A DNA stretch of 61,312 nucleotides, filler included, from Rhizaria sp. SCN 62-66 (taxonomy: Eukaryota), in NCBI GenBank assembly GCA_001724265.1. It is 3 parts of 3 records of this genome, joined end to end, with 100 filler letters (N's around TTAATTAATTAA, not from the genome) between each part and the next. Parts side by side here need not be neighbours in the genome. Positions count along the whole stretch, not along the records: positions 29,757 to 45,672 come from MEDY01000493.1; positions 45,773 to 61,312 come from MEDY01000494.1; 1 more part is not named here. One strand, given 5' to 3'. The translations under genes were made by a program, and so were the position numbers. This document shows, one piece after another, positions 34,125 through 61,312 of this stretch. Below the pieces are notes generated by a model that was given only the letters and a program-made list of their open reading frames with translations, had not been told where the DNA came from and did not search any database. Position 1 is the first letter of the stretch. Each line of letters starts with the position of its first letter.

Positions 34125-34783
34125 TCCGAGAGCTGGGAAGCGCGGAGATAGCGCGGCGCTGCGGCGATGAGGTGTCGGTAGAACAAAGGCGTGCGGAAGG
34201 ACGTATTGTTGTCCTGAAGAGACCTATACTCAGAGGTTCAAAAATTTATAAGCATGACGTATGAGAAAAACGATGTGCTAGTTCGTAAATTTGAGAATAG
34301 GCTGCGATAGGCAGCGCTAATGATGGATGAAATGAACAGAGTTGCGAGGACGAAGCCGCGTGCGGAGATTGCCGACAGTTTGTGGTAGTGTCAAGGCATC
34401 AACATGTTATTAGTTATTCCACGTTGTATACTCAAACAAATACACTAATCAATGTGTTACAGAACAAAATCCGGTCAGATGGATGCACATCTGACTCGCG
34501 CAAGTAGATGTTGCGGACTGGCTGTGCTGTGTTGTGACACGATGCTGTGGGCCGAAAAAATGTTATGTGGTGAGCCTCCAAAAACGATATCATACACCAT
34601 TGTTTGATCGTCAATCTTGATATAAGCACCACTTCTTACTTGTGCTTGTACTCACAATTTTGAACCTCTTATCACATCTTTTGTACTTCTGTCCAGCCTC
34701 CGCAAGAGACCATCTTACACAACGACGACCTCAGTCGTCAGTTTCTCTCATCCACCTCGCTTTGGTTCACGCCCAGTCTTACA

Positions 34784-38518: not shown

Positions 38519-38801
38519 AGTTATTTCTATTTAGTTCAACTATTATTTGACATAAACCAACTACAACATGATACATAGCCCTTTTTTCCCAGTGCAGGCT
38601 CATTGGTGAGGATACACAAAACTAAGGTAAATATGACTGTATTATTGTGAGTATGGAACTAGAGTAATATTGAATAGCCTCCTGGCCACTTGTTCTCAAG
38701 ACAGCAGCACAGGATAAATGGGCCAGCAGATTGTTTGAAGTAAGATCACGCACATCCAGAGAAACCGGTCAAGCACGATCAATCGAAGGTCGCAAGGTGA
38801 C

Positions 38802-39692
38802 TCACTCGTCGTTGTTGTCATCGAGCATCTTCTTGACAGCCTTATCCTCCTTGATCTTCTTGTTGACCTGCTCCATGGCCTTCTGCGTCGCCAGCTTGCG
38901 CTGCATCTTAAAGCTCTCGCGCTTCTGGATCTTCTTCTTCTCCCACGCGTCCTTCTCCTTGGCGCGCGAGATCTGCTTGCTTTCCCAACTCTCCTGCTTC
39001 GTCGCCATCTGGCCCAGGATGCTCAGCAGCGTGCTGTTCTCGGACTTGAGGAACTCGCTCTTGTCCGCTTTGGCCGCCGTCTTGCTCTTGCCCTTCTTGC
39101 TCCCCTTACCGTCGCCGCCCTTGGTCTTAGCAACGGCGGCCTTCTCGTTCTTCTTGGCCTCGAGCAGCGTCTGCTTCAGCGACTTACCGCCCGCGGCCAC
39201 CAGCGCCACGGCCGCCTCCGCCGCCTGGGCAGCGGCCTCGGCCTCACGCAGCCGCAGCCCGTTGCCCTTGCCCTTGCCCATGGCGGCAATCGCCGACACC
39301 GCGGCGCGCGCCTTGCGGGCCTCGGCCCGGGCGATAGAGAGGTAGTCGTACAACCCGTTGGCGCCGACGGGGCCGAACTTGCCCTCCTGCTGCTGCTGCA
39401 CCTTGCCACCCGCGTCGGCGCCGCCTGCACGTGCCTTGGTTAGCTTCTCGTTGACGGCCTTGCACTTGGCGACGGCGGCCGCGGCGGCGGCGGCCGCGGC
39501 GGCAGCGTGCTCGTCGACGGCGACCTTTGTGTGCGAAGTGACGCCGATGATCACCTTCTTCTTGTTCCCGCCCTTCTTGCCATCGCTGACAGCGGCAGCA
39601 GCAGCCGCGGCGGCGGCAGCCTCGTCGTCGGCGACCTTGCTATCCTCCTCGTCGTCGTCCTCAGCCTCTGCGTCGTCGTCCTGGTCAGCGTC

Positions 39693-39723
<31 letters not shown>

Positions 39724-39822
39724 CCGGTAATCTCGAAGGACATACCATCCTCGTCGTCGTACTGTTCAACCTCCTGCTTCTTTGCAGCGACCTTCTTAGA
39801 AGCAGCAGCAGGCGCAGCAATA

Positions 39823-39858
<36 letters not shown>

Positions 39859-40730
39859 GCGGCGGCCTTGGCGGGCTTAGACTTCGCCTCTAGAGCAGCA
39901 GCAGCGGCAGGAGCAGACTTAGAATCCTTATTGTCGTTCTTGTTAGTCTTGCCCTTGACTTCAGCAGCAGTAGCAGGAGCAGCAGCAGCAACAACAGCAG
40001 CGGGAGCGGCGGGGAGCGCGGACAGCTTGGCGGGCTTGGCCTTCTTGGAGACGGGGCGGAACTCCTCGTTCTTGTCCTCGTCGTTGTCATCACCGCCCTT
40101 GCCAGTCTTGACGACGCTCAGCTCGTCCTTGCCACCCTTGCCGGCAGCAGCGCCCTCAGTGACATCAACAGTGGGCTCGGGTGCGCGGCGTTTGAGCTCG
40201 AGCTCGGCGGGGATGGCCTTGCCCTGCTTGGTGAGCTCGAAGATGAGCTTGCGCTTCTGACGGTTACTCATCGTCGCCTTGCCAGCCGCGGACCGCGCGG
40301 CGCGGGCGGCGCGCTCGGCCTCGTGCGCGTCGCGATGCATCTGCGCGTCGCCCATCGACGCGTCGTCGTCGTCGCCGCGCAGCAGGTAGTGCTTCGACAG
40401 GTCCGTCGTCGCGGGCGCGGAGGGCGCCACGATCTCGAGCTCCTTGCTCTGCGCCTTGCGGAGCTTGTTGCGGCGGCGCTTGTCCTCCTTGCGGCGCCGC
40501 GCGGCATCGGCCTCCTCGGCGTCGGCGGCGGCAACGGCGCGCTCGTCAGTCTTCTCCGGCTCAGCATCGACGTCGACGCCGTTGACGGTGTACAGCTCGG
40601 AGTCAGGGATCTTGCTTTCGTCGGCGTTGTCGGCGTACGAACCAGCACCGCTAGAGGAAGACGGGCGGGCCTTGCCACGCATGGTGAAGTTTTTACCGCC
40701 CGAGCTAAAGCTGGTGACCGACTTGGACAT
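38802..40730 (-). CDS. Lys/Ala/Asp-rich, probably nucleolar protein with a Loc1-like (60S assembly factor) C-terminus
   Basis: 642-aa ORF. C-terminal FLKSENSTLLSILGQMATKQESWESKQISRAKEKDAWEKKKIQKRE resembles the conserved helical region of fungal Loc1 as I recall it. The CDS is secure; the function is tentative. Ends TGA. Confidence 0.55.
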
Positions 40731-41143
40731 CCGGGCTACGCGAATGGAAAGGAGGAGAGCGTGGGTGCGCGAGCGGAGGCGAAGACCAGGAGGTGCGGTT
40801 AGATAAGTGAAAAAGTGGCCAGCTAGACAGGATATCTTCGTCAGAATAGAAAATGGAAAATAACCCGAAATATTGCAGTTGTAATATCTTTCAATTTCTT
40901 TGACAACAATTTGTATGAGACACTATATAAACACCATCAGTCATTTTCCGTTCCTGCTCGGGAACACCTTTGACAGCCGTCCTGGCAGAGCCACAACTAC
41001 CCGCCCATACGACGAGCGACGACGAGGTGAAAAACAACTTGAAAAGACAAAAGACATGCGGATTTTGCACTGAAACTTCGTAGGCACACATATCACTGAG
41101 TTAACCATCACAAATTAAGGGCAACAACATGGCACAGAACAAT

Positions 41144-42488
41144 TTAGTAGTGCGGCACGCTGTCGCTGTCGCCGAGCAGAGGCGTGTGCATTGAGCTGGG
41201 CTTCTTGTTGTCCTTACTCTCCTTCTTGGCGTTCGCGCTACTGGTGCCACTGTTCGACACATCGGCGCTGTGGCTATCCTTGTTCTTGCTCTTGCCGCTC
41301 TTGCCCTTGTTTGCGGCCGCCGCAGCCGCTGCCGCGGCGTCCTGGCGGGCGACATTGGCCTCAGCCTCGGCCTTAAGCGCGGCCTCGGCCTCCTTGATCG
41401 CCTTACGCTTCATACGCTTCTCCTCAGCCGTCTCGCCGTCGTTGCCGCGCATCTTGGCAACCTCGGCCAGCAGCGCCTTCTCCTCCTTCTCCTTGGCCTG
41501 CACGGAGCGCTCCGCCGCCTCCTTCTCGTCGAGCGCGTAGCGCATGCGGTAGATGCGCGTGTGCAGCGCCTTGTCAATCAGGTTCACGACCTCGTACTTG
41601 TGCACCCAGCCGTCTGACACCACGTCCACGCAGTCCTGGTTCCACGGCACGTTGATCTTCTCCAGCTCCCTGCGCATGTGGTCGATCTGGTCCGCAGTGC
41701 CAATGATGCCGTTGGTCGTGGTCGCGATGAACTTAAACGCCATCTTGAACTCTTCCTTGACGAGCTCGAGCGCGCGGTCCGCGTTGGCCTGGCGCTGCTC
41801 GTCCGCGAAGGCGTCCTAGCCATCGCCGAGCTTGACCTGTTCCTGGTTGAGCTCGAACAGGCGGTCCTGCATGTCCTCGAGCGGGGCGATGATCTCGTCG
41901 AGTTTGTTGGCTTCGTGGGAAATCAAACCGACCTCCTTGCCCAGCGTGCTGAGACGCTCGCCGTAGACGTCAGTGGCCTCGGAAAGGGACTTGTTGATAA
42001 GGCAGTACTGCTCGCGCTCGAGGATACCCTTGCCTGCCACGCCTTCAAGCTTGGTCGCGGCGTCGGCGAGAGCCATGATCTTACTATAGCCCCAGACAAA
42101 CAGAGTAGAGCCGACGCCGACGAAGCACAGCGCAGCGCCGACGGCCGGGGTCGGGATACCAAGGCCCTTAAGGGCAAGGTAACCGACGGCCGCGCAACCC
42201 AGGAGAGAAGTGATGCAAATCATCTACATGACAAAGCAGCAGAGTGGCGTGAAAAGAGAGGGGATGCGAGCAAGTGTGAGCAGGGTGGCTGAAGGAAAGG
42301 CAGGGCGGGAGGGGGCAAGACAGACTGGGGAATGGATAATAGAGACGTACCTCGGTAACGTGGCAATCGTGGCCAAAGTACTCGCCGACATACCACTTCA
42401 TACACTTGTTCTAGGCGACGGCGTAGCAGCCCTCCTCTTCCTCTTGGTGGTCGAGCCCTTCCTCGAGGTCGCGGAAGCGCGACTCCAT
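41144..42488 (-). CDS. membrane-anchored coiled-coil protein with a degenerate EF-hand pair; 2 exons; contains two in-frame TAG codons
   Basis: Exons 42488-42351 and 42223-41144; intron GTACGT..TGTAG, phase 0. In-frame TAG at 42413-42411 and 41818-41816. Hydrophobic hairpin, then heptad repeats, then KEEFKMAFKFIATTTNGII...VDVVSDGWVHKYEVVNLI (calmodulin-like). Ends TAA. Confidence 0.75.
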
Positions 42489-42774
42489 GTTTTGACGGAA
42501 GTCAGACATCGTCGTCAAATTTCGCGCAATACACCTTTAACTAGAGCTCTCGTTCTAAAGGGTTCTGGCGTTAAAAAAGCCTGTTGACGAATGACAACGC
42601 CGTAGCACAATGCGCAAATCCCGACGACGACACCTTTGCTCACCACTGGAGGGCTCGCTCTGCTTTGGGCCCACGGTCCTTTGGCCGACCGACGGACTGA
42701 ACGGACCGTTCATGGTGAGGGTGTGGTGCGAGACGCAAAGTGCACATAGTTCTTGGTGTGGGTAACCGTTAAAG

Positions 42775-44655
42775 ATGCCGCAGTTAGAACACATCGTGTC
42801 TATTTCCCCCAAAGAGGGCATCGACGTTTTTAATCTCGATAACGGAGCTCACCTCCGGTCAATCAACATTCCAGCCATTGGCGCGCCCGGCGCCCCAGTC
42901 ATGTTGGACGAGGAGCACATCATCCTCCCCCAATCTGACCGCGCCATCATGCTCATCATCAACACAAAGACCGGTCAGGTCAAGATGCGCTCCCCTCTGA
43001 GCGAGCTGGTGCGTCCGCTTGCCGTCTCGGCCGCCAAGGACTACCTGGCGGCCGGCGCCGCGTCGGGCAAGGTGTACCTCTGGCACGTCCCCACAGGCGA
43101 GCTGGTCCGCGTCTGGGACGCCCACTATAAGGGCGTCTCGGCGCTCTGCTTCTCCGACGACGACTCGTTTCTCTTCTCCGGCGGCGACGACGGCATCCTG
43201 AACGTGTGGACACTGGGCACGCTGGTCGACGCCATGGCCGAGGACGCTACGGCGCGCCCCGCGCCCACGCTCGAGTTCTCGCACCACTCGCTCCCCATCA
43301 CCGCCATCGTCTGCGGCGCGGCCGTCTCGGGCGGCGGCAAGCTTTACACTACCTCGCTCGACCGCTCCGTCAAGTCCTACTCGCTGCCGGCGCGCGCGCT
43401 GCTGTCGTCCTACTCCTTCCCCGCCGCCGTCACCGCGCTTGCGCTCGACCCCGCGGAGCGCTTCTTCGTCGCCGCCGCCGCGGACGGCAACCTGTACAAG
43501 TACCTTCTGCTCGCGCCCACACAGACCGACGAAGGTAGCGCTGCCGTCGCCGGCGGCAACCTGTGGAGCGCGCTCGCCGCCGCCACGGCCACCAACGCCG
43601 CGGGCGCGCCCGTCGCCTCGCAGGGTGCGGGCGCCGCGGCCTCGCTCGCAGGCGCTGCCGCCGCGGCCTCGGCCTCCGCCGCGCGCGCCGCCGCGCAGGC
43701 GTCCGGGCTGTCGTTCGCGGGCCACACGCGCGAGGTCACGGCCGTGTCGCTGTCCTATAACGGCGCAGTCATGGTCTCCGCCTCTGCCGACGGGTACGTT
43801 CGCCGAATGCCTTGCTATTGTTTCATATGTAATGTTCAAGTTGATATCGTGCACACTTAGATGCAAAACCAATATATCGTGTGTATCCTATCAAGTCCTG
43901 ACTAATTCAAACCTGCTTGTTTTCTTGCCTCCTCTTTTGGTCGTGATATATCCGCCCTACTTAGCACTGTGCGTGTTTGGGACGTGCCGACCCGCCAGTG
44001 CCTGCGCACCCTCGCGACGCACCGCGCCTCGGTCGCGGCCGTCTCCCTGCTTCCCTCCCCGGTTGCGGCGCTGGGCATGCGCTCCACGGCGACAGCCAAG
44101 CGCGCTTTCGCGATGCTGACGAAGCACCTGATGCCCGCGATGCCGCTGGGCGCGCCCGATGCCGCGGCTCTGCTGCGGCCCGGGCACGCGCGCGGCACCA
44201 TCGCGATCATGACGGCGCAGCGGCCGCTGCTGGGCGCGCACGGCGACGCCGCTGCCGCGCTCACGGTCACCCCCGCGCTGCTGCCCTGTGGCGGCGCCGC
44301 GGGCGGCGCAGGCGCAGCCGGTGGAGCCCTCGGCGAGGCGACGTCAGGCGCGCTCGCGCTCTCCTGCTTCCCTGCTACTAGCGCAGCGCCTGCCACCACT
44401 GTGGCCGCTGCGGGTGCCGCGGCGCAGCAGTGTGGGCGGGCTAAGCGCCCCGCCCCCGCAGCTACTGCCGGGGCCTCTGCGTCCAAGAAGGACGACGAGG
44501 ACGAGGATAAGGACGCCGGCAAGGACGGCGAGGCTGCTGGCGATGTCAACGCCAGTGCGCGCGAGGCCGAGCTCGAGGCTGAGGTGCTCAAATGGAAGAA
44601 GAAGGCCGCTGACCTGTACAAGAAGCTTACAAAGGCCACCAAGACGCAGGATTGA
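42775..44655 (+). CDS. WDR18: WD40-repeat pre-rRNA processing protein Ipi3/WDR18, 2 exons
   Basis: Exons 42775-43793 and 43965-44655; intron GTACGT..CTTAG, phase 2, restoring SASADG-TVRVWD. Motifs GKVYLWHVPTGELVRVWDAHYKGVSALCFSDDDSFLFSGGDDG and HSLPITAIVCG...TTSLDRSVK; C-terminal coiled coil. Ends TGA. Confidence 0.85.
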
Positions 44656-44994
44656 GCTGCACTATGTCTCTAGCTGTGTGACAGTCGCACACGCTTGTAC
44701 TTGAGTTTGTGCGACGATGTTGCTGGTTTGATTGTAGTAGCTGTAATGCGTATTATTATATAGTAGTCGTCTATCGTATTGTGTGTTGATTGTGTTATTT
44801 CATATCAACCGCGGCGTGGCCATCGCTCGCCTCCACCAGTAATGTCAATCAAAAATGTTCAACGTTGGTCATATCTTGATGATGGTCATGACACATGATG
44901 CGCTTCATAAAGAATACACTGGAGTAATAAACTTGTATGCTTCGATCTCCATTTAGAACTGTAATATCCTCGTCCCGTCGGCCTCGAAATGATC

Positions 44995-45672
44995 TTAGTC
45001 GGCCTCGTTGTCATCCTCATCGTACTCGGAGCCGTCGCCCTCAACCCCCGTGTCGGAGGAGTCTTCATAGTCGGCGCCGCTGTCGTCAGAGCTGTCGTCA
45101 TCGTTGCTCTCGCTTGAGTCGTCGCTGCCCTGCGCCTGTTGCGGCAGGCTTTCAACCGTGTAGCAGCTAATGATGCTTACGACGAGCTGGCACAGCTGCT
45201 GGAGTTCACACATTGCGTCAACGAGCGCATTCTCACTCTGGATCAGTTCCAGCAATGCACGTAACCCGCAGCTCGCCATAAACGCTGCCAGAAAAGCGTT
45301 GCGCGGCATAGTCCCCTTAGCCAGCACCTCAGAGTTCGCTCCTGTGTCGCCCGCCTCGATCATTATGCGCACGACATCGAGAATCCTATTCATTGACTCT
45401 TTGGGGGGCGGTGCAGACAAGGTAGCGGCAGCGGAGAGATACCTTGCGCAGTAGCTTCCCTCGTCCACGCCTCACGCGCCATTCACTGCAACAGTCGCAG
45501 TCAGTGCAGCAGCAGTGCACCGACCGACGTTGCGGCGGCCTGGGCTGTGGCCGCCTTTGCCTGTGGCGGCGGTGGCGGCAATGGCGGCGGCGGCGCGGCG
45601 GGCGGCTCTGGCCCCGTGGCCGAGGAGGCTCTGGAGCGAGCTGTGTGGCGCGACGGAGAGCACCAGCGCATT
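44995..45672 (-). CDS. 3' fragment of a hypothetical gene with an acidic tail; in-frame TGA at 45474-45472 (possibly degenerate)
   Basis: Track ORFs 45472..45663 and 44995..45468 are in the same frame, separated only by TGA-GGC. The frame is open to the contig edge. Ends TAA. Confidence 0.4.
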
Positions 45673-45772
45673 NNNNNNNNNNNNNNNNNNNNNNNNNNNN
45701 NNNNNNNNNNNNNNNNTTAATTAATTAANNNNNNNNNNNNNNNNNNNNNNNNNNNNNNNNNNNNNNNNNNNN
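45673..45772. other. artificial contig linker
   Basis: 44 N + TTAATTAATTAA + 44 N, identical to 29657-29756. Confidence 0.97.
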
Positions 45773-46469
45773 CCCCCCCTACCACTAATCAGAGTCTAGC
45801 CGCCTCCATTTTGCGCAATCAAAAATCGTTTGTGGTGGAAAATACCGCCACTTCAAATGCACATCAAATCAGCAAATACTCCTCATTCGTAAAATTGGCG
45901 CGGGAAATAAAAAAGTTTCTAGAATTTCAACCGCATTAATCAATCATAGAGCGTGATGCGGAATGTAAACTCGATCATATGGATACATTTGGCGTGATGA
46001 AGAAGTGCGTTTATTCGAATATTTGAATGTGCAAAAGCAAGGGATGGGGTGACACTTCTTAGAGTACAGAGACACAGCACTGTACAAGCTGGTCTGAGTA
46101 CACAAACAAACGGTAAATTCAACAAGAGAAACACAATAAAAGCTTTAATGGCAATGGCAGTCCATATACGCTTGTGTGATGCGCACGTGCGAAAACACGC
46201 AATCGAGGCAGTGGACAAGAAAAATATATCAACAGTACGTGCATTCAACAAATAAAAAAAGAAAACCAAAAATCCAACTCCCATCCTTTACAACAAAAAG
46301 AACTCTCTCACTGACAACGAGTATTTCGTTTGTGTAATTGAAAAAAATCATAGACCGCACCGCGCAAACAACAAGAGCCTCTCTTAGGCGAGTCACACCC
46401 GCCGAGCCGCTCCCGCGCTTAGCTGTCATTGCCCAGCTGTCGTCGTTGCGCACCCAGTCACTCACCCGT

Positions 46470-49400
46470 TCACGCGTGGTAGTTCTTGACCGCGACGGCC
46501 TGGCCCGTGCGCGCCGACTCGATCGCCGCGGCCGTAACCGCGACCGAGGTGACACTGTCGGCCAGCGAGACGGGCGGCGCCGCGCCGCCGCGCACGGCCG
46601 CCACCACGGCCTGGTAGTAGTCGGTCCAGCGACCCGGCAGCGTAGGGACCGGCTCGGCGACGCCGGCGCGCGTGCGCAGCGTGCCGTACTCGGCCTTGGG
46701 CTCGACGGCGACTCCCAGTGCACGCCCAGCCACGAGCACGTGCTCCTGCGTGTCCATGCCGTGCTTGGCAAAGGTCGCGACGTCGCCGACCACCAGCATC
46801 TTGGGCTTGGGCACCGCGACAAACGCGCCCACGTCGACCACGGCCACGGACCCGTCAGAGAACGTCACCGTGACTTGCGCGTGCGTGTCGGTGTCGGGTG
46901 CCGCTGCGTCCTCGCGGAGGATCCGCGCATACACCGAAGCGGGCACAGGCGCCGCGGCCTCGGGCTCGTCGGGCTCAACCCCGGGCTCCGCGCGCCGCGC
47001 GTGGCGGAACACCGTGAGCGCGTGGTCCAGGCAATGGGCGCCCAGGTCCCAGAGGCGGCCGCAGCCGGCCTCGTTGGCGCCCCGCTTCCACGCCTCGGGC
47101 GACTTGGACAGCCCTGCGTTCCAGGCGAACTCGGCCCAGCGCACGCGGCCGAGCGCGCGCGTCTTGAGCAGACTGCGCAGCGTCGCAGCGTCGCCGTCGA
47201 AGCGCCGGTTCTGGAACACCGTGAGTACGCGGCCCGCGCGCGCGGCCTCGCCCGCCAGCGCCTCGGCCTCAGCTACGGTGGGCACGAACGGCTTGTCCAG
47301 CACGACGTGCTTGCCGGCGCGCAGCGCTGCCTGCGCGTACGCGGCGTGCGTATCGGGCGGGGACGCGATGACAACCAGCTCGACCGACGGGTCCGCCAGC
47401 GCGGCCTGGAGCGACGGGTACACAGTGGCTTCGCGCGCGGCGTCGAACGTCTCGGCCGTGGAGAAGTCCGCCAGCGACACGGGCCCCGCGCGTGCGCCGT
47501 CGCCGTCGCCGCTGCCCTCGGCCGCCGCAGAGTAGCTCGCGGTAGACAGGGAGAGCGAGAGCGAGGGCGAAAGCGAGAGTGAGACGCCCGCGCTCGCGGC
47601 CAGCGCGTCGGTCGCCGACACCGACAGCGCGGCGGGGCGCGTCAGCAGACGCATGTCCCACGCCACGCCGTGCGCGGTGACAAGTCCGTCAAACTGGTCC
47701 TGCTCGCGGGCAGACAGCGCGCACGGGGCGGCGGCGCGGCACGGCGCCTGCGTGTCCGCGCGGCCGAGCGCGTCGGCCTCGGTCACCGTGGCAAAGTGGT
47801 GCGCGTCGATCGGCACGCCCGCCTCGCCGAAGTGGTTATGCAGCTCGACGACGTGCTGCCTCACCGCGGCGGCGCGCTCTGCGTCGGCAGTGGCGTCCTC
47901 GCCACGGGGACGCACGACGGCGCCCTTGAGCACGATGCCCGCGGCCGAGGCCAGCGCGGGGGGGTGCAGGTCGCGGCCCGCGAGTCCCCAGCCGACGACA
48001 ACGGCGCGCACAGGCGCCACGCGCGCGGCGACGGGGCGGCCGTCACGCGCGGTCGCCGTCGTCGCCTTGGCCTGCAGCACGGGCTTGACGGCGAGCAGTC
48101 CGCGCGTGCGCATGTAGTAGTAGCCCTTGAGGCGCAGCGCCGCGTAGCCCAGGTAGTCGAACGCGACGCCCGTGGACAGCGACATAACGACGGACCACGA
48201 GCCCCAAAAGAGGTGCGCGGCCAGGACAAATCCCATGACGCGGCGCCGCAACACTTCGACGCGCGCCTCAAGCACGGGGTCCTCGCTCTGCGCGGCCTCA
48301 CTCAGCGATGCGGCGTCGGCGTCGAGCGTCGTGTTGACGTCGCCGGACCGCGCCGCAGACAGCGCGCCTGCCGACAGCGACTGCGGCGGCGGCGGCGGGG
48401 CAAGCATCGAGGGAGTGGTCGGCGACAGCAACGCGCCGCCATCGGGCCGCGTGGCCGCGCCTGCCGAGTAGAGGTCGGCCGCGCGGAGGTACGTGCGGAT
48501 GAAGTTACGCTGGTGGTCCTCGTCGGGGAACTGGCGCCAGTCACAGTCGAAGCCGGAGCACTCGCAGAAGTGGTTCGCGATGTCGAAGGCGCGGAAGTTG
48601 ATCGCGCCGTACTCGAAGTCGATCAACGTGACCGTGGGCACGCCGTGCTCGTCGTAGGTGTGCAAGATGTTGCCCGACAGCAGGTCGTTGTGGCAGAATA
48701 CGAGGGGCTCGTCAAGCGCCAGCAGCAGCGCGCGCAGCTCGACGAGCTCGCGGTGCACGCGCGGCAGGTCGAGCGAGCGGTATAGAGCCAGCCGGTCCGC
48801 GTCGCCCGCGGCCTCGAAGGCGGCCTCGGCCTTGATGGCGAGGGAGAGCCAGCTCTCGATCGTCGTCCACAGGGAGCCGTTCGCAGCCACGGGCTTCGGC
48901 GGCTCCGGGGACGGGCGCGGGGGCACGGACGAGCCTGTCGAAGCAGTAGACTGGGAAGCAGCAGCAGACGGAGCAGCAGTCGGGGCAGCGGCAGTGGCCG
49001 CGGCGGCAGTGGCAGAGGCGGTGGCGGCGGCAGCGACGGGCTCCTCGGGGGAGGGCATGCGGAAGCGGAGCGAGTGGAGCGCGGCGACGGAGACGGCGAC
49101 GGCGGAGGAGATCTGGCGGTCGAGCATCTTGGCTGGTGTGAGGCTCTCGGCGCCGTCGAGGAAGCCCTCAAGACGGCCGTTGGTGAAGGAGCCGAAGATC
49201 GAAGGGCCGACGCGGTTGCGCGAGATGAACTTGGCAACCTGGAGCTCCGAAACGCGGTTGATCACGGCCGACGAGTGGCGGCCAAAGAGGCGCACAATGA
49301 CCGGCGGGTACGGCGCCATGCGGCACACGAAGAGGCGGTTCGTGATGCCGCCCTTGAGCACGAGGTGCTCGAAGTCAACGGGCGCCTCGGCGGGAGCGGG

Positions 49401-49892
49401 ACCGGACGGGTGGTACCTGCGAGAGACATACGGGGACAGGGCAAGGTGGGGCAAAGATAGAAAGGCTGGGAGCGACTTGAGAGGGCGTCGGAGCGAAACA
49501 GAGGCGGAGACGTGGGGGATGGGTAGGACAGGAGGGGTTTGAACGACTTAAGGTTCTAGAGACGGACCTGTAGACAAGCTCGGAAATGACGTGATAAAGG
49601 TCAGCGCGGATGTTATCAAATGACTTGTCCATGTCGACCACAAACTTGATACGGCGGTCCTCTGGTGCGAGCTCAGACTGTGGAAGGAAGCAGTATTAAA
49701 ATAAGGGCAGTGCGACGTTGCGGGTTGAGTTGGGACGAGAGCAGTCAGAGAAATTAGTACTAGCGAGACATAAGCAGCAGTGGACGCCACAAAAAGAACT
49801 CAGCAATAAACATCAGCATGCGTCGCTCGTGGTATCAGACGTACCTGGTTGGGGTGGTCGTGAGAAGGCGGTCCAGTAGCAAATGCAGACAT
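46470..49892 (-). CDS. fusion protein: ethanolamine/choline kinase + Gfo/Idh/MocA oxidoreductase (YdgJ/IolW-like), 3 exons
   Basis: Exons 49892-49845, 49677-49568, 49416-46470; introns GTACGT..CACAG and GTCCGT..CGCAG. Kinase motifs: LKGGITNRLF, VIVRLFG, FTNGRLEGFL, VFCHNDLLSGNIL, LIDFEYG, FDIANHFCE, FDYLGYA. Oxidoreductase motifs: VVGWGLAG, GKHVVLDKPF, VFQNRRFDGD, GRLWDLGAH. Ends TGA. Confidence 0.88.
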
Positions 49893-50504
49893 TCTCGGTC
49901 ACCAACTTTGGATAGCGCGGCAGCAAAGGAAGGAGGGTGTAATAGGGGATATAAGTCGTAGGCACAAGTTAGAGCAAAATATAACGCTAGAAATTCCATC
50001 AGATTATATGGAACTATGCATATTTCACAATATACTAACGAGGAATCGTGGTGTAATAGTCTTCGCAAGTCACGTGAAGTCGTTGACCGATTCTCTCGGT
50101 GCAGCTCTCTGTTCTTAACTCCCCCTCTGACTTGGGAGGAGCTGCGCCGTCTCATTCTAGGAGCAGATCGGAGTCAAATCTGAGTCTTGGTAATTGTCGA
50201 TTTTCAATATGATGTGCTCAGTAGCGCGCATGTGTGTGTTTTTAATAGTATCTCTTGGTGATGTGTCGGGCGGTCAGTGAAATTGTGATATGGTTCCCTA
50301 TCAAACAAGGAGCGTGCCCCTTCTCCAAAATTGAGAAACCGAGTGTATAACATCTTCATATGACTCACCAATACGCACCACTCAGTAATTGAAACTTATG
50401 ATTTTTATGATATTGTGTTTCTAATCGGTTCAACCTCTCCACAGGCGCGTTTTCGACAAGAGAGTGTTGACGGCTTTCTTTGTCGAGTCCTCGCCGCTCC
50501 GTCA

Positions 50505-52568
50505 ATGTCCATGATGTCGACAGGACTCGCCGACCGCGTCCGCGCCATGCTGCGCCGCGAGGAAGACCTGGCCCAGCAGACACGCGGCTACCCCGCCAGC
50601 GGCGCTTCCCGCGGCGCTCCCGCGTCAGCCCACCCGCTCCGCAGCCGTTCTGGCGCCGCCAACACAAACTACAACAGCACCACGTACCACGGCGCCACCG
50701 ATGTCCCGACGCCGCGCGCGCAGCTCAACTTTAACTACGCTTCTCCTGCGCCCGCGCGCCACGGCTACGCCGCCGCGGAGCGCTTCCCGCTCGCCCGCGA
50801 CCGCGATGCAGCATACCCGCCGCGCAGCGACGACTATTCATATTCATCTGCCGCCGCTGCTGCTGCGCCCTACGCGTCGCCGACCCACCACGCAAGCGTC
50901 TTGCAGCACAGCACGCACCCGGGCCCGCTGCACCACTCTTTCACCGCCGCCGCCGCCAATGGTTACGGCGGCCTCGGCTCGAGCCTCCCCGCGCTGCCCC
51001 CACCGCGCTCCCCCGCTATGCTGCACTCGGCCTCCACCGCACTGGCAGCCTCTGCGACCGCGGCCTCCTCGGCGGCGGCTGCGTCGGCTCCCGCGCACGT
51101 GCGCTCGCTGCGGCACCAGCACCTGGTCGCAGCACGCCTAGCCGCCCACTTAAGCGCAGTCGTGCACCGCGGGCGCGCGCGCGAGCAGGAGCTTCTCTCG
51201 GCGCTCTCGGCCCTATCGCCACACGCGTCGGCCGGGCTGGGCCCCGCGGGCGCATGGGCTGAGGGGCTGGGCGCAGACGCGGGCCCCGCGCCCGGGGAGC
51301 CCGCCGCCGTGCGCGAGGTCCGCACCGTCGCGCTCTACGAAGGACTCGTCTCCGCTCTGGGCCTCGCCAACACACTCTCAGCCACAACCGCGGATAACGC
51401 CGGGGGCGAAAACGACGGCGAGGCGGTGTGGTGCTCCGTGTGCGCGGGCGCGTCGCTGTCGCCGGCGCGCGCGCAGGAGCTGGAGGACCTCTCGGCCGCG
51501 CTGGCAGCCGCGCAGAGCGAGACGGCTGCGGTCCGCGCCGAGCTGGCCCGCGCGACTGGGCTGCTCTCCGACGCCAGCGACGCTGCCGCGCGCACGCGCG
51601 TGCAGATCGACGCGCTGGGCCGCGAGGCGCTGCACGCGGCCGAGCGCGCCGACGCCGCCGAGGCCGCGCTGCGCGAGCTGCAGATTGCCAAGGCCGCGGC
51701 CGAGCGCCGTGTGGCCGCGGACGAACTCGCGGCCGGAGACGCGCGCGGAGCCCTCGCGCACGCGCAAGCAGAGGCCGCGGCGGCGCAGCAGGCGCTGCTG
51801 GCCGAGCGCGACGCCGCGCGGGCCCGCGAGGAGCAACTGCGCACGCGCGCTGACGCCGCTGCGCACCGTGCGACCGCCGAGGCGCAGCGTGCAGTCAGTG
51901 AGGCACAGCGCGCGGCGGCCGCGGAGCTGCGCGAGAGCGAGGCCACGCGGCGTCTGCAGGCGGCCGACGCGCACGCGCACGCCGCCGTGCAGGCCGCACA
52001 GAACGACGCGGCGGCGGCGGAACGGCGCGCGGGCGAGGCCGCGGCAGAGGCGCGGCGACTGACGGTCGTGCACGGCGGCACGAGCAAGGGCTGGGAGGAT
52101 GAACGCGCCGAGCTGGCGGCCGCGGCGGAGCGTCACAAGCGCCGCGCCGTCGAGGCCGACGCGCAGGTGGTCGCGTTGGAGCAGCAGGTGCGCGAGCTGC
52201 GCGCCGGGCTCACCGCGGTCCGCAATGCCACGGCTCACGCGCCACACACGGTCCTGGCCCTGCCCGCGCCCGCCGGCCTCCGTCCCGAGAGCGACTACGC
52301 GGCTGCTTCTGCCTCTGCGACGCCGCGCTTCGGCATTCCGTTTGCGGGCCCGCCTGGCGTGTTTGCCAGTCTGCAGCAGCACGACTCCGCCGGCGCGCGC
52401 GGCGGCTTCGGCGGCGGCTACAGCAGCGACTTCGGCGGCAGCGACAGCGGCAGTTCTGTTGTGGCGGCGCGCGCTGAGAGTGAGGAGCTCCGTGCGCTGC
52501 TCGCGCGCGCAGAGGCGGAGCTCCGCGTCGAGCGCAACCGCGTCGGCGCGCTCTCTGCCGAACTCGCT

Positions 52569-52611
<43 letters not shown>

Positions 52612-54986
52612 TCACGACTCCGCGCATAGGCTTCGGCTCCAGCTCCAACTCGAGCTACGGTTTAAGCTCTAGCACTAGCGTGGAGGAGCGCGGTCTCGTG
52701 CCGCACAACCCTTACGCGGCAAACGCCAACGGCAGCGGTCATGGCGCGCACAGTAGCGCCGCAGTGATCGAGGCGACTGCGCGCGCGCGTGAGGCTGAGG
52801 CCCTTGCCGCGAGCGCCGCGCGCGAGGCCGCCGCGCTGCAGAAGCAGCTCGCGCAGGCCGAGGAGCGCAACCGCACGCTGCTCAAGGCGCACGGCGCGGC
52901 GCGCACAGACTGTATGCGACTGCGGCAGCAGCTCATCGACGCGCAGGCCACCGCCAGCACGGGCGCGGCCGCGGTGCTGGTGCCCGAGCTGCGCGCGCTT
53001 CTCGCGGCCAGCGGCGCCAACGGCCACAGTGCTCCGGGCTCGCCGCGGGGGGCCTCGTCGGCGGCCGCGCGCGGGGGCATCGCTGCAGCGCTGCAGGCCG
53101 TCGCCGTTGCCGCGTCGAGCCGTCAGGGCAGCCGCCTCGGCAGTCGCCGCGGGTCATTCGCCGGCTCCTCCCCCGTCAACGGTGCGCGCGGCCGTGTCGG
53201 CGAGGGCGCGTGGGCCGGCGGCGGCGTGCCTGAGCACGGAACCCGCGACCACGAGTCTGAATCTGCGAACGCGCTGCCGTTTGTCGGCGCGCTCATGAAG
53301 AGCTTCACCGAGGCGAACCTTACCGCGCGCGCGCTGGCCGAAATCGCCGCGGGTGCGAGCCCCGAGCACGGCGTGGCGTTCGCGCCGCCGCAGGAGGTCG
53401 CCGCGCGGCTCGCCGGCATGGGCGTTGGCGCCGGCGCTGTCGACACGCGCACGCCAGTGCCGCGCACGCTCAGCGCGTGGCCGGACTCTGCGGTCGGCCC
53501 TGCGGCGGGTGAGAGTGCTGCGCTGGACGTGGGTTACGACGTGCCCGCGCTGCTCACGCTCGCCAACGCGGTCAACACGGGCACGCTGCTGGCCTCCGCG
53601 CAACTGGGCTTTACGCCCGGCGACAGCGACTGCGACGGCGACGGTGGCGATAACAGTGAGCACCACGCAATTGCGGCCGCAGCGGTGCTGCCCGAGGGCG
53701 CAAGCCCGGCGGCGTGGGCGTCTGCGCGCCGGCACCCGCGGCTCATCAGCACCGCCGCCAACGCGCTCTTGAGCTCGCTGCTGCAGTTCGGCGACGGCGC
53801 GAGCTCCACAGAAGGCAATGGCAACGGCAATGGCGCTGGCAAAACTGTGCAGGTGTTGTTCCCGCTGTTGGTGAGCGAGCACATGAGCCCCGCGCAGGCG
53901 GCCGCGGCAGTCACTGCGCAGGTGCGACGCGTGGTGCTGACGAGCCGGCTCGTGCTGGCGCTGGCCGAGTCGCACCAGGCCATCACAGCGCTCGCACAGA
54001 GCCTCGTCGTCGGCGCGGAGGACCTAGCGCTCCTCAGCCAAGCCGCCGCGGACAACGGCCACGACGGCGCGGGAACCTCCGGGGCGTCCGCTGCGGCGGC
54101 CGCGGCGCTGGTGAGGGAGCGCGCGCTGCGGGCCGGCGTGGCGAGCTCGCTCGAGGCGTCGTGCGCAGCGCAGACGGACCTCGCGGAGAACGCCGTGGAC
54201 GACTTCCCGCCCGCGCTGGCGCACGCTGTCGGTCTGCGCGGCGATCGGCCGCCGCTGGGACTTGTGTCAGAGCAGTTCCGCCAGCGCCAGGCCTCGGCCG
54301 CCATGGTCGCAGACGGCATGGACGGCGTCGACAGCGACAACGACACCTACAACAACAACAATAACAACGACGGTGACGACGACGACGACGATGACGCGGA
54401 CTTTGACCTACTGATGATGGGCTCGGGGCTCACCCTCGAGGATGGCCTCAGCGGCGCTGCCGGCGGCGTGGGGGTGGATCTGGACGCACTGCTCAACGCA
54501 CACAGCGCGGCCTCGACCAACGCACCCACTACGCCCTCCGCCGGGTCCGCGTCCGCGCCCGCGCGCGGCGGCTTCGCGCTGTCCTCTCTCAACAGCGGCG
54601 GTGGTGACGGCGCGAAGCGGTCGTTCTCGACGGCTGAGGTGGAGCGCGTGGCACGAGCCATCATCGCGCGCTTCCGCGGCGAAATGGAGACGCTGGCGGC
54701 GCAGAACGTGTCGACGTCGGAGAAGCTCGCGCGCAGCCGGCTCCGCTGCGAGCGTCTGCGCGAGGCAGTGGGACAGGCGAATCTAACTGTGCGCAAGGCG
54801 CGCGAGGCGCTGGCGCTCGTGAACGGGCGCGTCGACACTCTCGCGACCGTCACGCGGAGTAGGGAAGAGGAGGCGCTCGTCGCCGTGGATGATCTGCTCG
54901 AGCGACATGTGCGCCTCAGCCGCGACAACGGGAAGCTGCGCAAGGAGCTCGCGAGGCTCGAGGCCGCGCACAACTACGCTATGTAA
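50505..54986 (+). CDS. hypothetical long coiled-coil protein (~1490 aa) with a poly-Gln tract
   Basis: First ATG of the 4.5-kb ORF is at 50505. Extended Ala/Glu/Arg heptad regions at ~51470-52230 and at the C-terminus. Ends TAA. Confidence 0.8.
52572..52610 (+). repeat. (CAG)13 microsatellite encoding poly-Gln
   Basis: Perfect CAG run following CAA, inside the coiled-coil gene. Confidence 0.9.
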
Positions 54987-56200
54987 CTAATCTTTTATCA
55001 TGCACGCAGGAGTGAGTCCTGCTTTGTCCATGAGATGCACGCTGTACATAAGCGTTGTGTTTTTTAGTCTTTTCCTGATTTAAACGTCTCGTCGCTATGA
55101 TGCGAGAGCACTGCAGCGTGGTTTTGTTCACTCATTTTGTTTTTTTCATCACTACCATTGTATACTTTTTTGCTCGGTAATATTTTGTACACTTGTTCAT
55201 GTTAATAAGATTCACAGGAGTGCGGCTGATTACGTGCGTTGCCTGGATTGTAGCCGGTACAGCGGTTTCCACAAATTGCCCCACGTGGCAAGTTTGCGAT
55301 TGTTTCTTGTTGTTTTGCTTGGTGTGATTAGTTCGCTGTGACGCAATGTTACGCATTTTTGCTCTCTGTCATTTGTGAGTGCGGAGAACATACCTCTTGT
55401 TCAAGTGCAGAGTATAGGAAGAAAATTTGATTATGTCCTCATACAGAACCCTTTAATACTCTTCTTCTTTTTTTTTTGCACTAATGATCGTCCACGAGTG
55501 GTATCCTCGTATTTTGATCTTTCCGTACATTACCTTACCAGGGTGGCCGGACGGAGCTTCGAGACCAGACCACGTCGCCTCTCTTCGGATCTTAACTGCG
55601 CATAAAACCGATCGTCATTTTGGACGCTGCGAAATATTAAGATATTAATATGTAATTCAATACTTGTGTTTTGGTTAAATTTCCTGGGGTTCCTAACCAT
55701 GATCTCCAGTAATCATTATGCGACAGCCAGTTCCGGTGGTGTGACCTGCTTGCATGCCCATCATTCTGACACCATCTCATGCGATACAAGAGTGAGCTGA
55801 TAGCATAAAACCGGATCGTTGCTGGTCTATTTTTGTTCATGCGCTGCCTGGTACTGCGTGTTTCTCATGTAACCTTTCTTACTCCCTGTTAAATCCTGGC
55901 GGAGCAGTGATGTCGCAAAAGATGCAGCGCGAGTCGGCTCAGAAATGCGAGGTCAAATGGGGTCTAGACATAGCACCACGATAATATGCGCATGCATGAG
56001 AACTTAATTTCGTATTTTTAGCTCGTATACCTCCTCATAAATCCTTTAATTGTCTGTTTTCCTTCACTTTAGCCGTATTTTCTCTTCGTTTCCCCCAGTC
56101 CGCAAGTCGCGCACGTCAGCTTTCCCCGCATCATCCTCGCCCCTGCACACCCGCGCCTTCGTCGCCTGCGCTTGCGCCCGCGTCTCCGCTTGCCGCCGCC

Positions 56201-59200
56201 ATGTCGTACCCGTCCCACATGGGCATCCAGATGGGCCACATTGGCAACAACGTGGAGGACGACTTCATCCGCATCGCCGGGCTCGACTACACGGCCGAGG
56301 AAGTTGATCCTCTGCGCGCGCTCTGGCTCGACGTCAATGACCCCGACGCGGCGCCCGCCGAGCGCGACGCCGCACGCGAGGCCTTTTAGAAGGAGCGTGC
56401 GCGCCTTAAGGCCGTCGTCGCGGACCGCGCGTCGATGCAGCGCCGCCATTGGGGCAACGTTGCTTGGCTCGACATCATGCTGCAGCGCTGGCTCACGCCC
56501 GTGATCATGCTCGCCTACCGCCACACCGTCACCGAGCACGACATCCCCGCGCTGCCACCCGCCGAGAGCGCGGCGGGCGTGGCGAACGACTTCAACCGCG
56601 AGTGGCAGCGCGAAATCGAGCGCGCCGTGCGTCTTCGCCAGCCGCCCTCGGCGTTCCGTGCCGTCGTCAAGAGTAACCTCCGGCCGTTCGCGACCATCGC
56701 GGTGTACGAGGCGATCTTCTACGCGACGACCTTCGCGTCGCCGTACCTAGTCGACGCGCTGACCAGCTTCTTCGAGCGCGCGGGCCGCGGCGAGCCCACC
56801 GATGCGAGCGAGGGCTTGCTCTACGCAATGGGGCTCGCGCTCGTCGCGCAAGCCGCGGCCGCGATGGTCGTGTACAAGTTCTTCTACTGCACGACCTTTG
56901 GCCAGCGCATGCGCTCGATGGTGATGATGACCGTGTTTGACAAGTCTCTCGCCATCGCGCCCTCGGCCGCGCTCGAGACGACCACGGGCGAAGTGATGAA
57001 TCTCATGGCCAACGACGCGCAGAAGCTGCCCGGTGCAGCTCTCTTTGCGCACTTGCCGTGGATCTCCCCCACGGTTATCCTCATCTGCATGGTGCTTCTG
57101 TGGGCCAAGATTGGGCCCTCTGCGCTGGTGGCGATGGCGCTCATGGCGATGCTGCTGCCGATGCAACTGCTCGTCGCGCGCTGGGTCGGCAAGAACCGCC
57201 GCGCGACGCTCGTGTTCACCGACGCGCGCGTCAAGCAAGTCAACGAGATGCTGCAGGGCGTGCGCGTGATCAAGCTCTACGCCTGGGAGGGCGCGGTGCG
57301 CCGCACGCTGGCCGCGATCCGCGAGAAGGAGCTCCGCTTCATCCGCAACGGGCTGCTCTACCGCATGCTTAACCTCGTGATGCTGTTCGTGTGGCCCGCG
57401 CTGGTGACGTACCTCACCACGGTGGCGTATGCGCACATCGGCGACGGCGAGCTCCAGAGCAACACCATCTTCTTCATTCTGTCGTTCCTCAACGTCGCAC
57501 GCTTCCCCATCACTCTGCTGCCGTACGTCATGCAGTCGCTCGTCGAGTCCCTCGTCGCCACCAAGCGCGTCGCCACATACCTCACCCGCGCAGAGTTGCC
57601 CCAGCGCCCGCTGCTCCCCGCACCCGCGCACGCAATCACTCCGGCACCCCAGTCAGCAGCCGCCGCCGCCGCCGCTGCGTCCCCCGCTGCGACTCCCAGT
57701 AAGCGTGGCGGCGCAGCGGCACACTCTGCCCCCGCTGCTGGTGTGATGAGCGCGCCGTCGCAGGCGACGCTGAGCAAGTCCCTGTCGCTGGTGCCGCCGT
57801 ACGCCGCGCGCTTCGCCGTCGCCATGCGGCACGCCGCCTTCACATGGTCGCGAGAGCCGCTCTCTAGCGACGCCCCGCCCGTGCTCGCCGACGTGTCCCT
57901 TGCCCTGCTGCCCGGCTCGCTGACCGCGGTTGTGGGTCCCGTCGGCGCGGGCAAGTCGTCGCTGATCTCGGCCATCCTGGGCGAGATGCACCTCTACGCC
58001 TCGGGCGACTGGGCGCGCGCGGCGGGCGCTGTCCCTTCGGGACTCACCGAGCAGGAACGCGCGCTCTGGCAGCTGGCCGCGCGCGGCGAGGCGCGCGCCC
58101 CCGACGCCGCGCCTGCCGTGCCCACGCAGCGCCAGCGCCCTGAGGCCGGCGCGCTCGCCCCCATCAAGTCGTCGGGCCATGGCGCTGGCGCAGGCTCAGC
58201 GGCTGAGGGCGAGGAGCCGTTCATGCTCTCGCCCGACACGGGACTGCCGCTGCCGGCTTCGTTCCTGGAGCTGCCCGCGCCCGCGTACTCGACGGCGATG
58301 CCGCCGCCGCCACCGCTGGCCGCGGGGCCCGACGGCGTGCTGCTGGCCGAGCGCCCCGCCGCGGGCGACCTCGACTGCTCGGACCCGCGCGCAGCGCTGC
58401 AGCTTGTCTGTCTGCGCGGCCGCGTCGGCTACCTCGCGCAGGACCCATGGATTCTGCACGCGACCGTGCGCGACAACATCACGCTCGGCCTGCCGTACTC
58501 GCGCGCGCGCTTCGACGCCGTCGTCGCCGCGGCGGCGCTGGCGCCCGACTTTGCGATCCTGCAGCACGGCGCTGACACGGTCATCGGCGAGCAGGGCGTG
58601 AACCTTTCGGGTGGCCAGAAGGCGCGCGTCGCCATGGCCCGCCTGCTGTACCGCGCGGACCTGCTCGACGTTGTGCTGCTCGACGACCCCTTCTCCGCCG
58701 TTGACATGGGCGTCGGCAAGCACATGTGGGAGCAGTGCGTTCTGGGCGTGCTGCGCAACAAGACGCGCCTCATCTGCCTCAACTCGCACCTCCACTTCCT
58801 GCGCCAGGTCGACGCTATCGCTGTGCTTGACGCCGCTGCCGGCCGCGGCGCCTCTGCACCCGCCTCGCCCGCCCACCACAGCCAGGACCACAGCCCTGGT
58901 CACAGTCATGGGAACGTGCACGTGCACGACATCGACCTCGACCTCAGCGTCGACTCGAGCGCCGCCCGCAGCGGCTCCAGCCTCGGTGCTATCGGCGCCG
59001 GCGCTGGTGTTGATGTTGCGGCGGGGCTCGTCTCGGACATGACGCGCCGGCCCGTGACGACGATCGTCGCGCAGGGCACGTACGCAGAGCTCGTGGCGGC
59101 TGACGTCGAGTTCTCCCGGTTCGAGCACCACAACGAGGGCCACGACCCCGAGGAGCCGCCCGCGATGGGCGCCACCGACGCCGACGGTGAGCCCATCGCC

Positions 59201-61312
59201 GTGCCCGCGCCCGACGACGCCGCGGCCGCGCACGAGATCGTCGCGATCGAGCCGGAGTCCGAGGCCGAGACCGACGGGACTGACGGGGCCGGCGGCAAGG
59301 AGGCTGAGGGTTTCTCTCCGTCACCCGAGAAGGCGCGGCGCGACTCTGTCGGCACGGCGCGCGAGCGCGTGCGTGCGGCGAGAGCGGAGAAGCGCGGCCA
59401 CCACGCCCTGCACTACGGCGCTGCGGCGGCGGCGCAGCAGCAGCACGGCAAGGCCAACGCCGCGCCCGCCGGCGGCGCGCGCAAGGCCAAGATCGGGGAG
59501 GAAAAGGTGATGCAGGGCGACGTAGGTCTTAACGCTTACTTAACCTACTTCCACGGCGGCGCGACATTCCAGGGTATGGTCCTGAAGCTGAGCGTGATGA
59601 CGGTGCTGGCGCTGCTGGCGCAGGTCACGCGCATGCTCGTCGACTACTGGGTCATCGAGTGGGCCAACGACTCCCCCGAGGGTCCGCTGAGCGCGCACAC
59701 GCTGTCGTGGTGGGAAGGCACCAGCGGCATCATCATCACGTCGTGCTTTGCGGCGCTGTTTATGCGCACGTTCTCGTTCGTGTACACCAACATTTCGGCC
59801 TCGCGCAGTCTGCACGACAGCAACTTCGACCGCGTCCTGCACGCGCCCATGGGTTGGTTCGACGTCACGCCGCTGGGACAGATCGTGAACCGCTTCTCCA
59901 AGGACATGGACGACGTCGACATCCTCGTGCCGGACAACCTCGTGACCGTCGCGCAGCAGTCGCTCATGCTCGTCGGCATCGTCGTGCTCGCCTGCATCTC
60001 CACCCCCGTGTTCCTGGTGCCCTTCACCGGCATCGCCGTGCTTATGGCCTACGCCGTCGTCGTCTTCCGCCGCTCGCTCACGCAGCTCAAACGCTGCGAG
60101 TCTAAGTCCTTTTCGCCCGTGTACGCGTCGTTCTCGTCCGCAACCAAGGGCGCGATGACGATCCGCGCCATGGCGCTGGTGCAGCAGTTTACGGCGACGC
60201 ACGAGGCGCTGCTGGACGTCAACACCAAGGTGTGCTACATCTTCAACCTCATCCAGCGCTGGCTCTCGTTTCGCCTCGACTCGCTATCGTGCGTCTACAT
60301 CTTCGTCGTCGGCGCGCTCTGCGTGCTGCTGCGCGGCAGCATTAACCCTCGCGTCGCCGGCCTCGCCATCGTGTACGCGTACCAGCTCACCGGGCTGCTA
60401 CAGTGGACCGTGCGCTCCGCGCTCACGCTGCAGGCCGCCTTCACCTCGGTCGAGCGCATCGAGCAATACGCACACATTCCACAAGAGCCCGAGTACCGCA
60501 CCACGCCCGACGCGCGCATTGCCGTGCGCCGCGCCGCCGCCGCCGCCGGTGTCGACCTCTCCTCGTTCCCCATCGAAGTCTCCAACGGCACAGCGCGCGT
60601 CGCCGCGCACTCCGTCACGGTTGCAGCGCACTCCGCGCCGTCCTCGCCCTCCCGCGCCTACGCGCGCTTCGACGGCGATGACGGCGGCGCAGCGTCCGGG
60701 GTCGCGCTGACCGCCGCGACGATCGAAGACGCGCCGACGCCGATGTACGGCTGGCCGTGGCGTGGCGCGATGCGCTTCACGCGCGTGACGATGCGGTACC
60801 GCCCCGATCTGCCGATTGTTATCCATGACCTCTCGTTTGCGCTGCCGCCCGGCAAGAAGGTTGGCATCATTGGCCGCACCGGCGCGGGCAAGTCCTCACT
60901 GCTACTCATCCTGTTCCGCATGGTGGAGCTCTCCGCGGGCCGCGTTGAGATCGACGGCGTCGACATCTCCACTCTCGGTCTCGGCGACCTCCGCGCGCGC
61001 ATGTCGATCATCCCCCAGCAGCCGACGCTCTTCTCGGGCACTGTGCGCTACAACCTCGACCCCTTCGGCCACCACAGCGACACCGAGCTGCTGACGGCGC
61101 TGCGCCGCGTGCAGATGCTCGAAGTCGTCGAGGCCATGCCCGGCGTACTGCAAGCGCCCGTCAGCGAGTTCGGCGGCAACTTCTCGCAGGGCCAGCGCCA
61201 GCTGCTGTGCATTGCGCGCGCGCTGCTGCGTAACAACAAGATCATCGTGCTTGACGAAGCCACGGCCGCCGTCGACCCGGCGACTGACGCGGCGATCCAG
61301 AGCACAATCCGC
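56201..61312 (+). CDS. ABCC/MRP-family ABC transporter (short form, no TMD0), 3'-truncated; in-frame TAG at 56387-56389
   Basis: Absent from the ORF track because the frame runs off the window; translated by hand. ATG in GCCGCCGCC-ATG context, lasso-like motif WLTPVIMLAY..VTEHDIPALP, TMD1 (GEVMNLMAND, VIKLYAWE), NBD1 (GPVGAGKSS, LSGGQ, VLLDDPFSAVD), TMD2 (FDVTPLGQIVNRFSKD), NBD2 (GRTGAGKSS, FSQGQRQL, IVLDEATAAVD). Confidence 0.93.

Follow-up and report, generated by a model that had tools for sequence, protein, structure and literature searches.

In-frame UAG codons in two genes of an uncultured GC-rich eukaryote: a candidate reassignment of UAG to glutamine

Two genes contain in-frame UAG codons

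The stretch of DNA considered here, referred to throughout as the window, is 61,312 bases long, belongs to assembly GCA_001724265.1 (deposited as Rhizaria sp. SCN 62-66) and is composed of three contigs (positions 1-29656, 29757-45672 and 45773-61312). Two genes on two of these contigs, a two-exon gene termed here gene A and a gene for an ABC transporter, contain between them three TAG triplets that would terminate translation under the standard genetic code. These triplets had been proposed in an initial annotation of the same DNA as evidence that UAG is read as a sense codon; their in-frame positions and peptide contexts were confirmed in the sequence.

Gene A lies on the minus strand. Exon 1 (42351-42509) has its first ATG at 42509-42507 and contains TAG no. 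1 (42411-42413) at codon 33, while exon 2 (41144-42223) contains TAG no. 2 (41816-41818) in its middle and ends with a TAA at 41146-41144. The exons sit in different frames, and the 127-nucleotide intron between them (42224-42350, with its 5′ hexamer at 42345-42350; GTACGT...TAG) scores as non-coding. The product is a membrane-anchored coiled-coil protein that belongs to no Pfam family. An orthologue, P0002, which like P0010 comes from a contig of 20.6 kb, aligns to it without gaps at 75% identity (184/245) and reads through TAG no. 2 with glutamate. A second relative, the cluster-mate of P0002 known as P0006 (381 residues, from contigs no longer than 1,300 nucleotides), supplies exon 1 in spliced form, with 36/53 identities by tblastn and a start that aligns with the ATG at 42488; it displays glutamine opposite TAG no. 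1 and, like P0002, glutamate opposite TAG no. 2. P0006 joins both exons directly, which proves exon 1 and the intron of gene A to be real. The window sequence is eukaryotic, this transcript-like orthologue crossing a 127-nucleotide GTACGT...TAG intron. P0006 and gene A also end at the same C-terminal tyrosine. The 90% cluster of P0002 lists in addition a 54-residue protein, P0005, whose sequence is seemingly unrelated and which is probably a clustering artefact.

The second gene (56201-61312, plus strand) encodes an ABCC-type ABC transporter with Pfam ABC_membrane and ABC_tran matches and runs off the end of the window. TAG no. 3 (56387-56389) is its codon 63 and precedes an internal ATG at 56435 that corresponds to Met79. 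Residues 19-250 of the predicted product align without gaps to P0021 (115/232 identities, 50%, in a full HMMER scan), a protein encoded on an 82-kb contig, with threonine opposite TAG no. 3. Since the N-terminal extension that contains this site is conserved in P0021 and is fused there to the transporter body without gaps, it is taken to be protein. P0021 itself stops 13 residues past the Walker B motif, its tail being non-homologous, probably through translation into an intron, and uninformative on the code.

Coding character on both sides of the UAG codons

Twenty candidate coding frames, bounded by TAA and TGA only, were examined in the window. Nine TAGs occur in them, four of which are in leaders upstream of real starts (10371, 11462, 34226 and 40925), two in introns (42226 and 43858) and three in coding sequence (42413, 41818 and 56387). 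A codon-usage score, trained on ten other open reading frames (ORFs) of the window that together contain 10,569 codons, amounts to 0.73-1.4 bits per codon on either side of each coding TAG, which is the level of gene bodies; the intron of gene A and the leader of the ABC transporter gene score about -0.2. Downstream of TAG no. 2, for example, the score is 1.4 bits per codon and the GC content at third codon positions (GC3) is 0.90, and the segment upstream of TAG no. 3 scores 1.08 bits per codon, as compared with -0.2 for the leader before the ATG.

The initial annotation had also proposed a comparison of in-frame TAG with in-frame TAA and TGA. A scan of the window, made in every frame, covered the 312 stop triplets (172 TGA, 88 TAG and 52 TAA) that have at least 40 open codons to either side. 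It identified coding-like sequence on both flanks of 2/88 TAGs (41818 and 56387) and of 0/224 TAAs and TGAs. TAG 42413 resides in a short exon and is invisible to a scan that demands 40 codons on each side.

Several ways in which a TAG might lie in such a position without being translated were considered. The ungapped conserved protein that extends across the TAGs and the identical contigs in other assemblies (see below) exclude introns, upstream ORFs and assembly error. A mini-intron around TAG no. 2 is ruled out by the ungapped alignment and by the lack of a GTACGT there. TAG no. 1 could be pictured as the stop of an upstream ORF, a possibility ruled out by the relatives, in which the part upstream of it is kept as protein and continues into the body. 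The same role for TAG no. 3, first suggested by gene models that begin at Met79, is ruled out by the fused extension of P0021. Mutation of C to T resembling repeat-induced point mutation is likewise ruled out, with GC3 staying at 0.8-0.9 around the TAG sites.

Gene ends and the remaining stop codons

Nineteen gene ends were counted in the window, of which 10 are TAA, 9 are TGA and none is TAG. The initial annotation had listed 17 (9 TAA and 8 TGA); its statement that TAG is absent from gene ends holds, and the count itself is revised upward. If TAG usage were 10, 20 or 25%, the chance of finding 0/19 TAG ends would be 0.135, 0.014 or 0.004, respectively. Three coding-like ORFs do end in TAG, two of them at intronic triplets (1922-1924 and 43858-43860, both within GTACGT...YAG introns) and the third at TAG 41816-41818, the second in-frame TAG of gene A.

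A transportin-1 orthologue (31359-34124, minus strand) that ends with a TGA at 31361-31359 serves as a control for TGA as a stop. Its C-terminus at this TGA aligns with the C-termini of four of five homologues, and the fifth, P0012, continues in a long unaligned tail. The TAA of gene A is a true stop, since the C-terminus it defines coincides with that of the orthologue P0006. Because the gene A TAA and the transportin TGA fall at conserved C-termini and none of the 224 scanned TAAs and TGAs is embedded in coding-like sequence, UAA and UGA are, as judged from these comparisons, still terminators. This part of the earlier proposal, that both codons remain stops, is therefore retained.

The UAG codons in independent contigs

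The TAGs recur in metagenomic contigs assembled elsewhere. A scan of metagenomes yielded a single contig, L001, and collections of genome and viral contigs gave no more DNA of this organism. A contig of 3,220 nucleotides (L001) is identical to positions 39087-42306 and includes TAG no. 2, and zero-difference contigs from two other studies, X3 (39874-43458) and X4 (41368-42468), contain both gene A TAGs. In X3 there is no alternative letter at either site, the TAG form being the only one present. A contig of X7, from a run that is probably DNA, carries TAG no. 2 unchanged, and the TAG-bounded fragment of gene A known as P0001 has been called on 6 contigs from several sources. The recurrence of TAG no. 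3 is documented solely by the 7 contigs, from 4 sources, on which the 62-residue piece that ends at this codon (P0022) has been called. The poly(A) run X5 has contigs on neighbouring genes, none of the listed pieces of which spans a TAG, and is neutral on the code. The possibility that the TAGs are C-to-T consensus or assembly errors, raised in the initial annotation, is refuted by the identical contigs for TAG no. 1 and TAG no. 2.

A second, short contig of X4 (depth 10.4 of 15.8) differs from the window at six positions within 37 nucleotides of gene A around TAG no. 1. On the coding strand the changes are TGT to TGC, TAG to CAG, GCC to ACC, GGC to GGT, GAG to GAA and GAA to GAG, or four synonymous third-position changes, one replacement of alanine by threonine and one TAG/CAG difference. 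If UAG specifies glutamine, five of these six changes are silent. The presence of CAG at the first site in a co-occurring variant thus fits, and favours, glutamine as the probable meaning of UAG.

UAG as a candidate sense codon

All three TAGs lie in ungapped alignments with relatives, opposite glutamine, glutamate and threonine. Conserved ungapped sites, the lack of TAG gene ends and the CAG variant together support the reassignment of UAG alone, probably to glutamine, that had been put forward for this DNA. That UAG is a sense codon, most plausibly read as glutamine, with UAA and UGA as stops, is the best reading of the window; it is a likely one, and it is not proven.

Such a code would be served by a glutamine transfer RNA (tRNA) with the anticodon CUA, one base removed from the CUG isoacceptor, which would read UAG, and by a release factor eRF1 that would have lost or weakened its recognition of this codon. 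TAG would first have been purged from gene ends and would now be starting to reappear by CAG-to-TAG changes. In the window TAG accounts for 3/16,076 codons, against 468 CAG and 54 CAA, and is thus about 150 times rarer than CAG. This scarcity suggests that the reassignment is recent or still inefficient. At mutational equilibrium UAG would be expected to reach about the frequency of CAA (54 CAA versus 3 TAG in the window). It could be, at a little under even chances, that a code change is in progress, in which UAG has gone from gene ends, has been captured by a glutamine-type suppressor tRNA and is back at about 0.2 per 1,000 codons. If so, the co-occurring strains that differ by CAG/TAG would show this reappearance happening now. 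The relative with 80-81% identity, whose ABC transporter model (P0004) likewise begins at Met79, may have the same trait, and the age of the trait could then be estimated. P0004 is located on a 113-kb contig, and its start at Met79 is the pattern expected if this relative too has an in-frame stop in its N-terminal extension.

A number of observations weigh against a sense UAG. The residues opposite the TAGs amount to three columns only, and these disagree on one amino acid. No tRNA genes were found in the window by ARAGORN or Rfam, and eRF1 is not encoded there. Of all single-base nonsense changes possible in the codon usage of the window, 70-72% give TAG, so that TAG at all three sites carries little weight by itself. 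The evidence comes from a small sample of 61 kb, 19 gene ends and 3 TAGs, and the rarity of TAG also resembles that of rare nonsense alleles. The ABC transporter gene is modelled from Met79 both in its own protein entry (P0003) and in P0004, from the relative with 80-81% identity, and the gene could still function from there. Finally, the CAG variant of gene A could be the working allele and the TAG form a null allele.

Alternative explanations

Nonsense alleles are the main rival. In this account the code is standard and the TAGs are three real nonsense mutations, gene A having died recently with two hits and the ABC transporter being made from Met79. The preponderance of TAG among possible nonsense changes (about 70%), its extreme rarity (3/16,076 codons), the CAG allele at the first site and the gene models that start at Met79 are all points in its favour, and with ordinary usage 0/19 TAG ends would turn up with a probability of 1-14%. 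Even so, the absence of TAG gene ends is then left to chance, and three hits are needed in 2 of about 20 genes, in a window with 0/224 embedded TAAs and TGAs. The hits would moreover have come with no frameshifts and with a fully preserved codon bias downstream of each TAG. In X3 no form other than TAG occurs, and this form persists in studies from 2015-2025, which requires fixation over ten years. The stretch that precedes TAG no. 3 also shows conservation at the protein level. On balance three nonsense mutations appear unlikely, at roughly one chance in eight.

Another possibility is that UAG is still a stop and is leaky or ambiguous, with a near-cognate or weak suppressor tRNA yielding both truncated and full-length products. 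Leaky or ambiguous reading of UAG is the expected intermediate toward full reassignment under the ambiguous-intermediate model, and the very low frequency of TAG is in keeping with a codon whose use carries a cost. The nucleotides that follow TAG no. 1, no. 2 and no. 3 are, respectively, A, G and A, and a purine after UAG is not a leaky or known readthrough context, the leaky context having C. Two leaky stops in gene A would also multiply the loss of product, and 0/19 gene ends use TAG. A leaky UAG is therefore considered improbable, more so than nonsense alleles.

Editing or removal of the TAGs from the messenger RNA fares worse. Adenosine-to-inosine (A-to-I) editing would convert UAG to UGG, a tryptophan codon, and such editing is known to correct premature UAG codons in certain filamentous fungi during their sexual stage. 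Relatives of the two genes show glutamine, glutamate and threonine, not tryptophan, and the CAG of the variant differs from TAG at codon position 1, not position 2. Editing to tryptophan, which the initial annotation had listed among its alternatives, is thus a poor fit. Splicing out of the TAGs is excluded by alignments that are ungapped at all three sites and by the absence of GTACGT there, and the two mechanisms together are very improbable. Sequencing or assembly errors in this assembly, in favour of which no observation speaks, can be practically dismissed, given the identical sequence in the L001, X3, X4 and X7 contigs and the TAG-bounded protein pieces P0001 and P0022, which recur on 6 and 7 contigs, respectively, of several sources.

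Genomic context and occurrence of the organism

The source of the window is an uncultured, GC-rich, intron-poor microbial eukaryote of bioreactor and wastewater metagenomes. Coding GC3 is about 0.8-0.9, and a single long ORF is the commonest gene layout. Pfam matches in the window include the ABCC-type transporter, a transportin-like HEAT protein, a WD40 protein, a mitochondrial carrier, a Suc_Fer-like protein, a choline-kinase/GFO-oxidoreductase fusion, a papain-type protease and a Myb domain in an ORF of 3,633 codons; about half of the ORFs belong to no Pfam family. One gene looks like that of a mitochondrial ribosomal protein by virtue of its targeting-like N-terminus, a label that is assigned here and has no database match. 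The transportin is 54-56% identical to two metagenomic proteins and 26-28% identical to named fungal and animal proteins, with a tapeworm among the named matches. An Atlas look-up of P0006 returned weak eukaryote clusters only (score 0.91, with recognition below the usual level). Six studies dated from 2015 to 2025 contain the stretch, in metagenomes of bioreactors, wastewater and activated sludge.

Three introns were recognised in the window, all of which begin with GTACGT and end with YAG. In addition to that of gene A, these are an intron of about 207 nucleotides on the minus strand (5′ hexamer 1976-1981) and one of 169 nucleotides on the plus strand (5′ hexamer 43795-43800). From the hexamer common to all three, the 5′ splice site seems to be strongly constrained.

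The 3,633-codon ORF (16624-27525, minus strand) is 72-79% GC, contains no in-frame TAG and has as its sole Pfam match a Myb DNA-binding domain at residues 1800-1842; its end is overlapped in another frame by an ORF at 13367-16930. On the minus strand at 46470-49547, a single ORF joins a choline/ethanolamine kinase (residues 64-476) to a GFO/IDH/MocA oxidoreductase (residues 696-1020), an unusual pairing. Within the region of the papain-type protease gene (30257-30387), runs X7 and X4 contain a second contig that has 13 substitutions within 90 nucleotides between identical flanks; after the gene A variant, this is the second patch in which a co-occurring strain or allele differs sharply. Segments 39315-40376 and 45156-45672 have very high contig depth in all four runs (up to 1,378 and 7,392, respectively) and many chimeric-looking joints. 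Both are GC-rich low-complexity repeats that encode alanine, aspartate and glutamate and draw contigs from other loci or organisms. The spacers between the contigs (29657-29756 and 45673-45772) each consist of N44 + TTAATTAATTAA + N44 and place stops in all six frames, and the window is not one molecule.

Comparison with known UAG reassignments

A code of the proposed kind already has a formal description in NCBI translation table 15, the Blepharisma nuclear code, in which TAG is glutamine. This table would translate both TAG-bearing genes without interruption, and nothing in the window points to the Blepharisma ciliate lineage. A literature search of full main texts returned no report of UAG reassignment in a wastewater eukaryote or in a GC-rich non-ciliate one. 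If the proposed meaning of UAG is true, the window provides a further independent case, from a GC-rich, aerobic, uncultured eukaryote, and with it a data point on the usual coupling of UAG and UAA. With so few sense UAGs, the organism would also represent a natural early stage for testing codon-capture against ambiguous-intermediate models. Public protein sets would then already contain genes that standard-code callers have cut at TAG, with P0001, P0003 and P0022 as such fragments. Wastewater and bioreactor metagenomes of six studies from 2015-2025 contain the organism, so material for follow-up exists.

Outside the ciliates, nuclear codes with a changed UAG and with UAA still serving as a stop are known from a handful of lineages only (PMC5304391; PMC11687900). 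The closest parallel in terms of decoding is Iotanema spirale (Fornicata), in the nuclear code of which UAG is described as glutamine and termination as left to UAA and UGA (Panek et al., 2017; PMC5304391). The same description gives sense UAG as the first downstream stop-type codon in 81/574 checked transcripts, and predicts a mechanism that combines a tRNA-Gln(CUA), one base from tRNA-Gln(CUG), with a change in eRF1 (PMC5304391). The organism of the window would resemble Iotanema, as so described, in the reassignment of UAG alone, probably to glutamine, with termination at UAA and UGA. It differs in the abundance of the codon, UAG being common in Iotanema and limited to 3/16,076 codons here. 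Iotanema is, furthermore, a fornicate (Metamonada) that is called anaerobic (PMC9161772), whereas the organism considered here, with a coding GC3 of about 0.87, encodes a mitochondrial carrier and an apparent mitochondrial ribosomal protein.

In the rhizarian exLh, the nuclear UAG is reported as leucine, with 384 in-frame UAGs in 71 genes and with gene ends at UAA (56) and UGA (15) (PMC5304391). For both Iotanema and exLh, the eRF1 positions that correspond to human Thr32 and Leu69 are discussed in that paper (PMC5304391). The organism of the window would share with exLh a UAG-only reassignment, and its gene ends are likewise exclusively UAA or UGA. Unlike in exLh, leucine lies opposite none of the three sites in the window, and UAG density is about 100 times lower.

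Among phyllopharyngean ciliates, UAG is described as glutamine for Hartmannula sinica and for Trochilia petrani and as leucine for a TARA lineage (McGowan et al., 2024; PMC11687900). These ciliates keep UAA as a stop, and two genomes yielded suppressor tRNA genes (PMC11687900). The likeness to them is that UAG alone would be reassigned and that UAA still terminates. The differences are that UAG use is widespread in the ciliates, and that the organism of the window is GC-rich, has GTACGT introns of 127-207 nucleotides and lacks close relatives among named organisms, its transportin being 26-28% identical to named fungal and animal ones.

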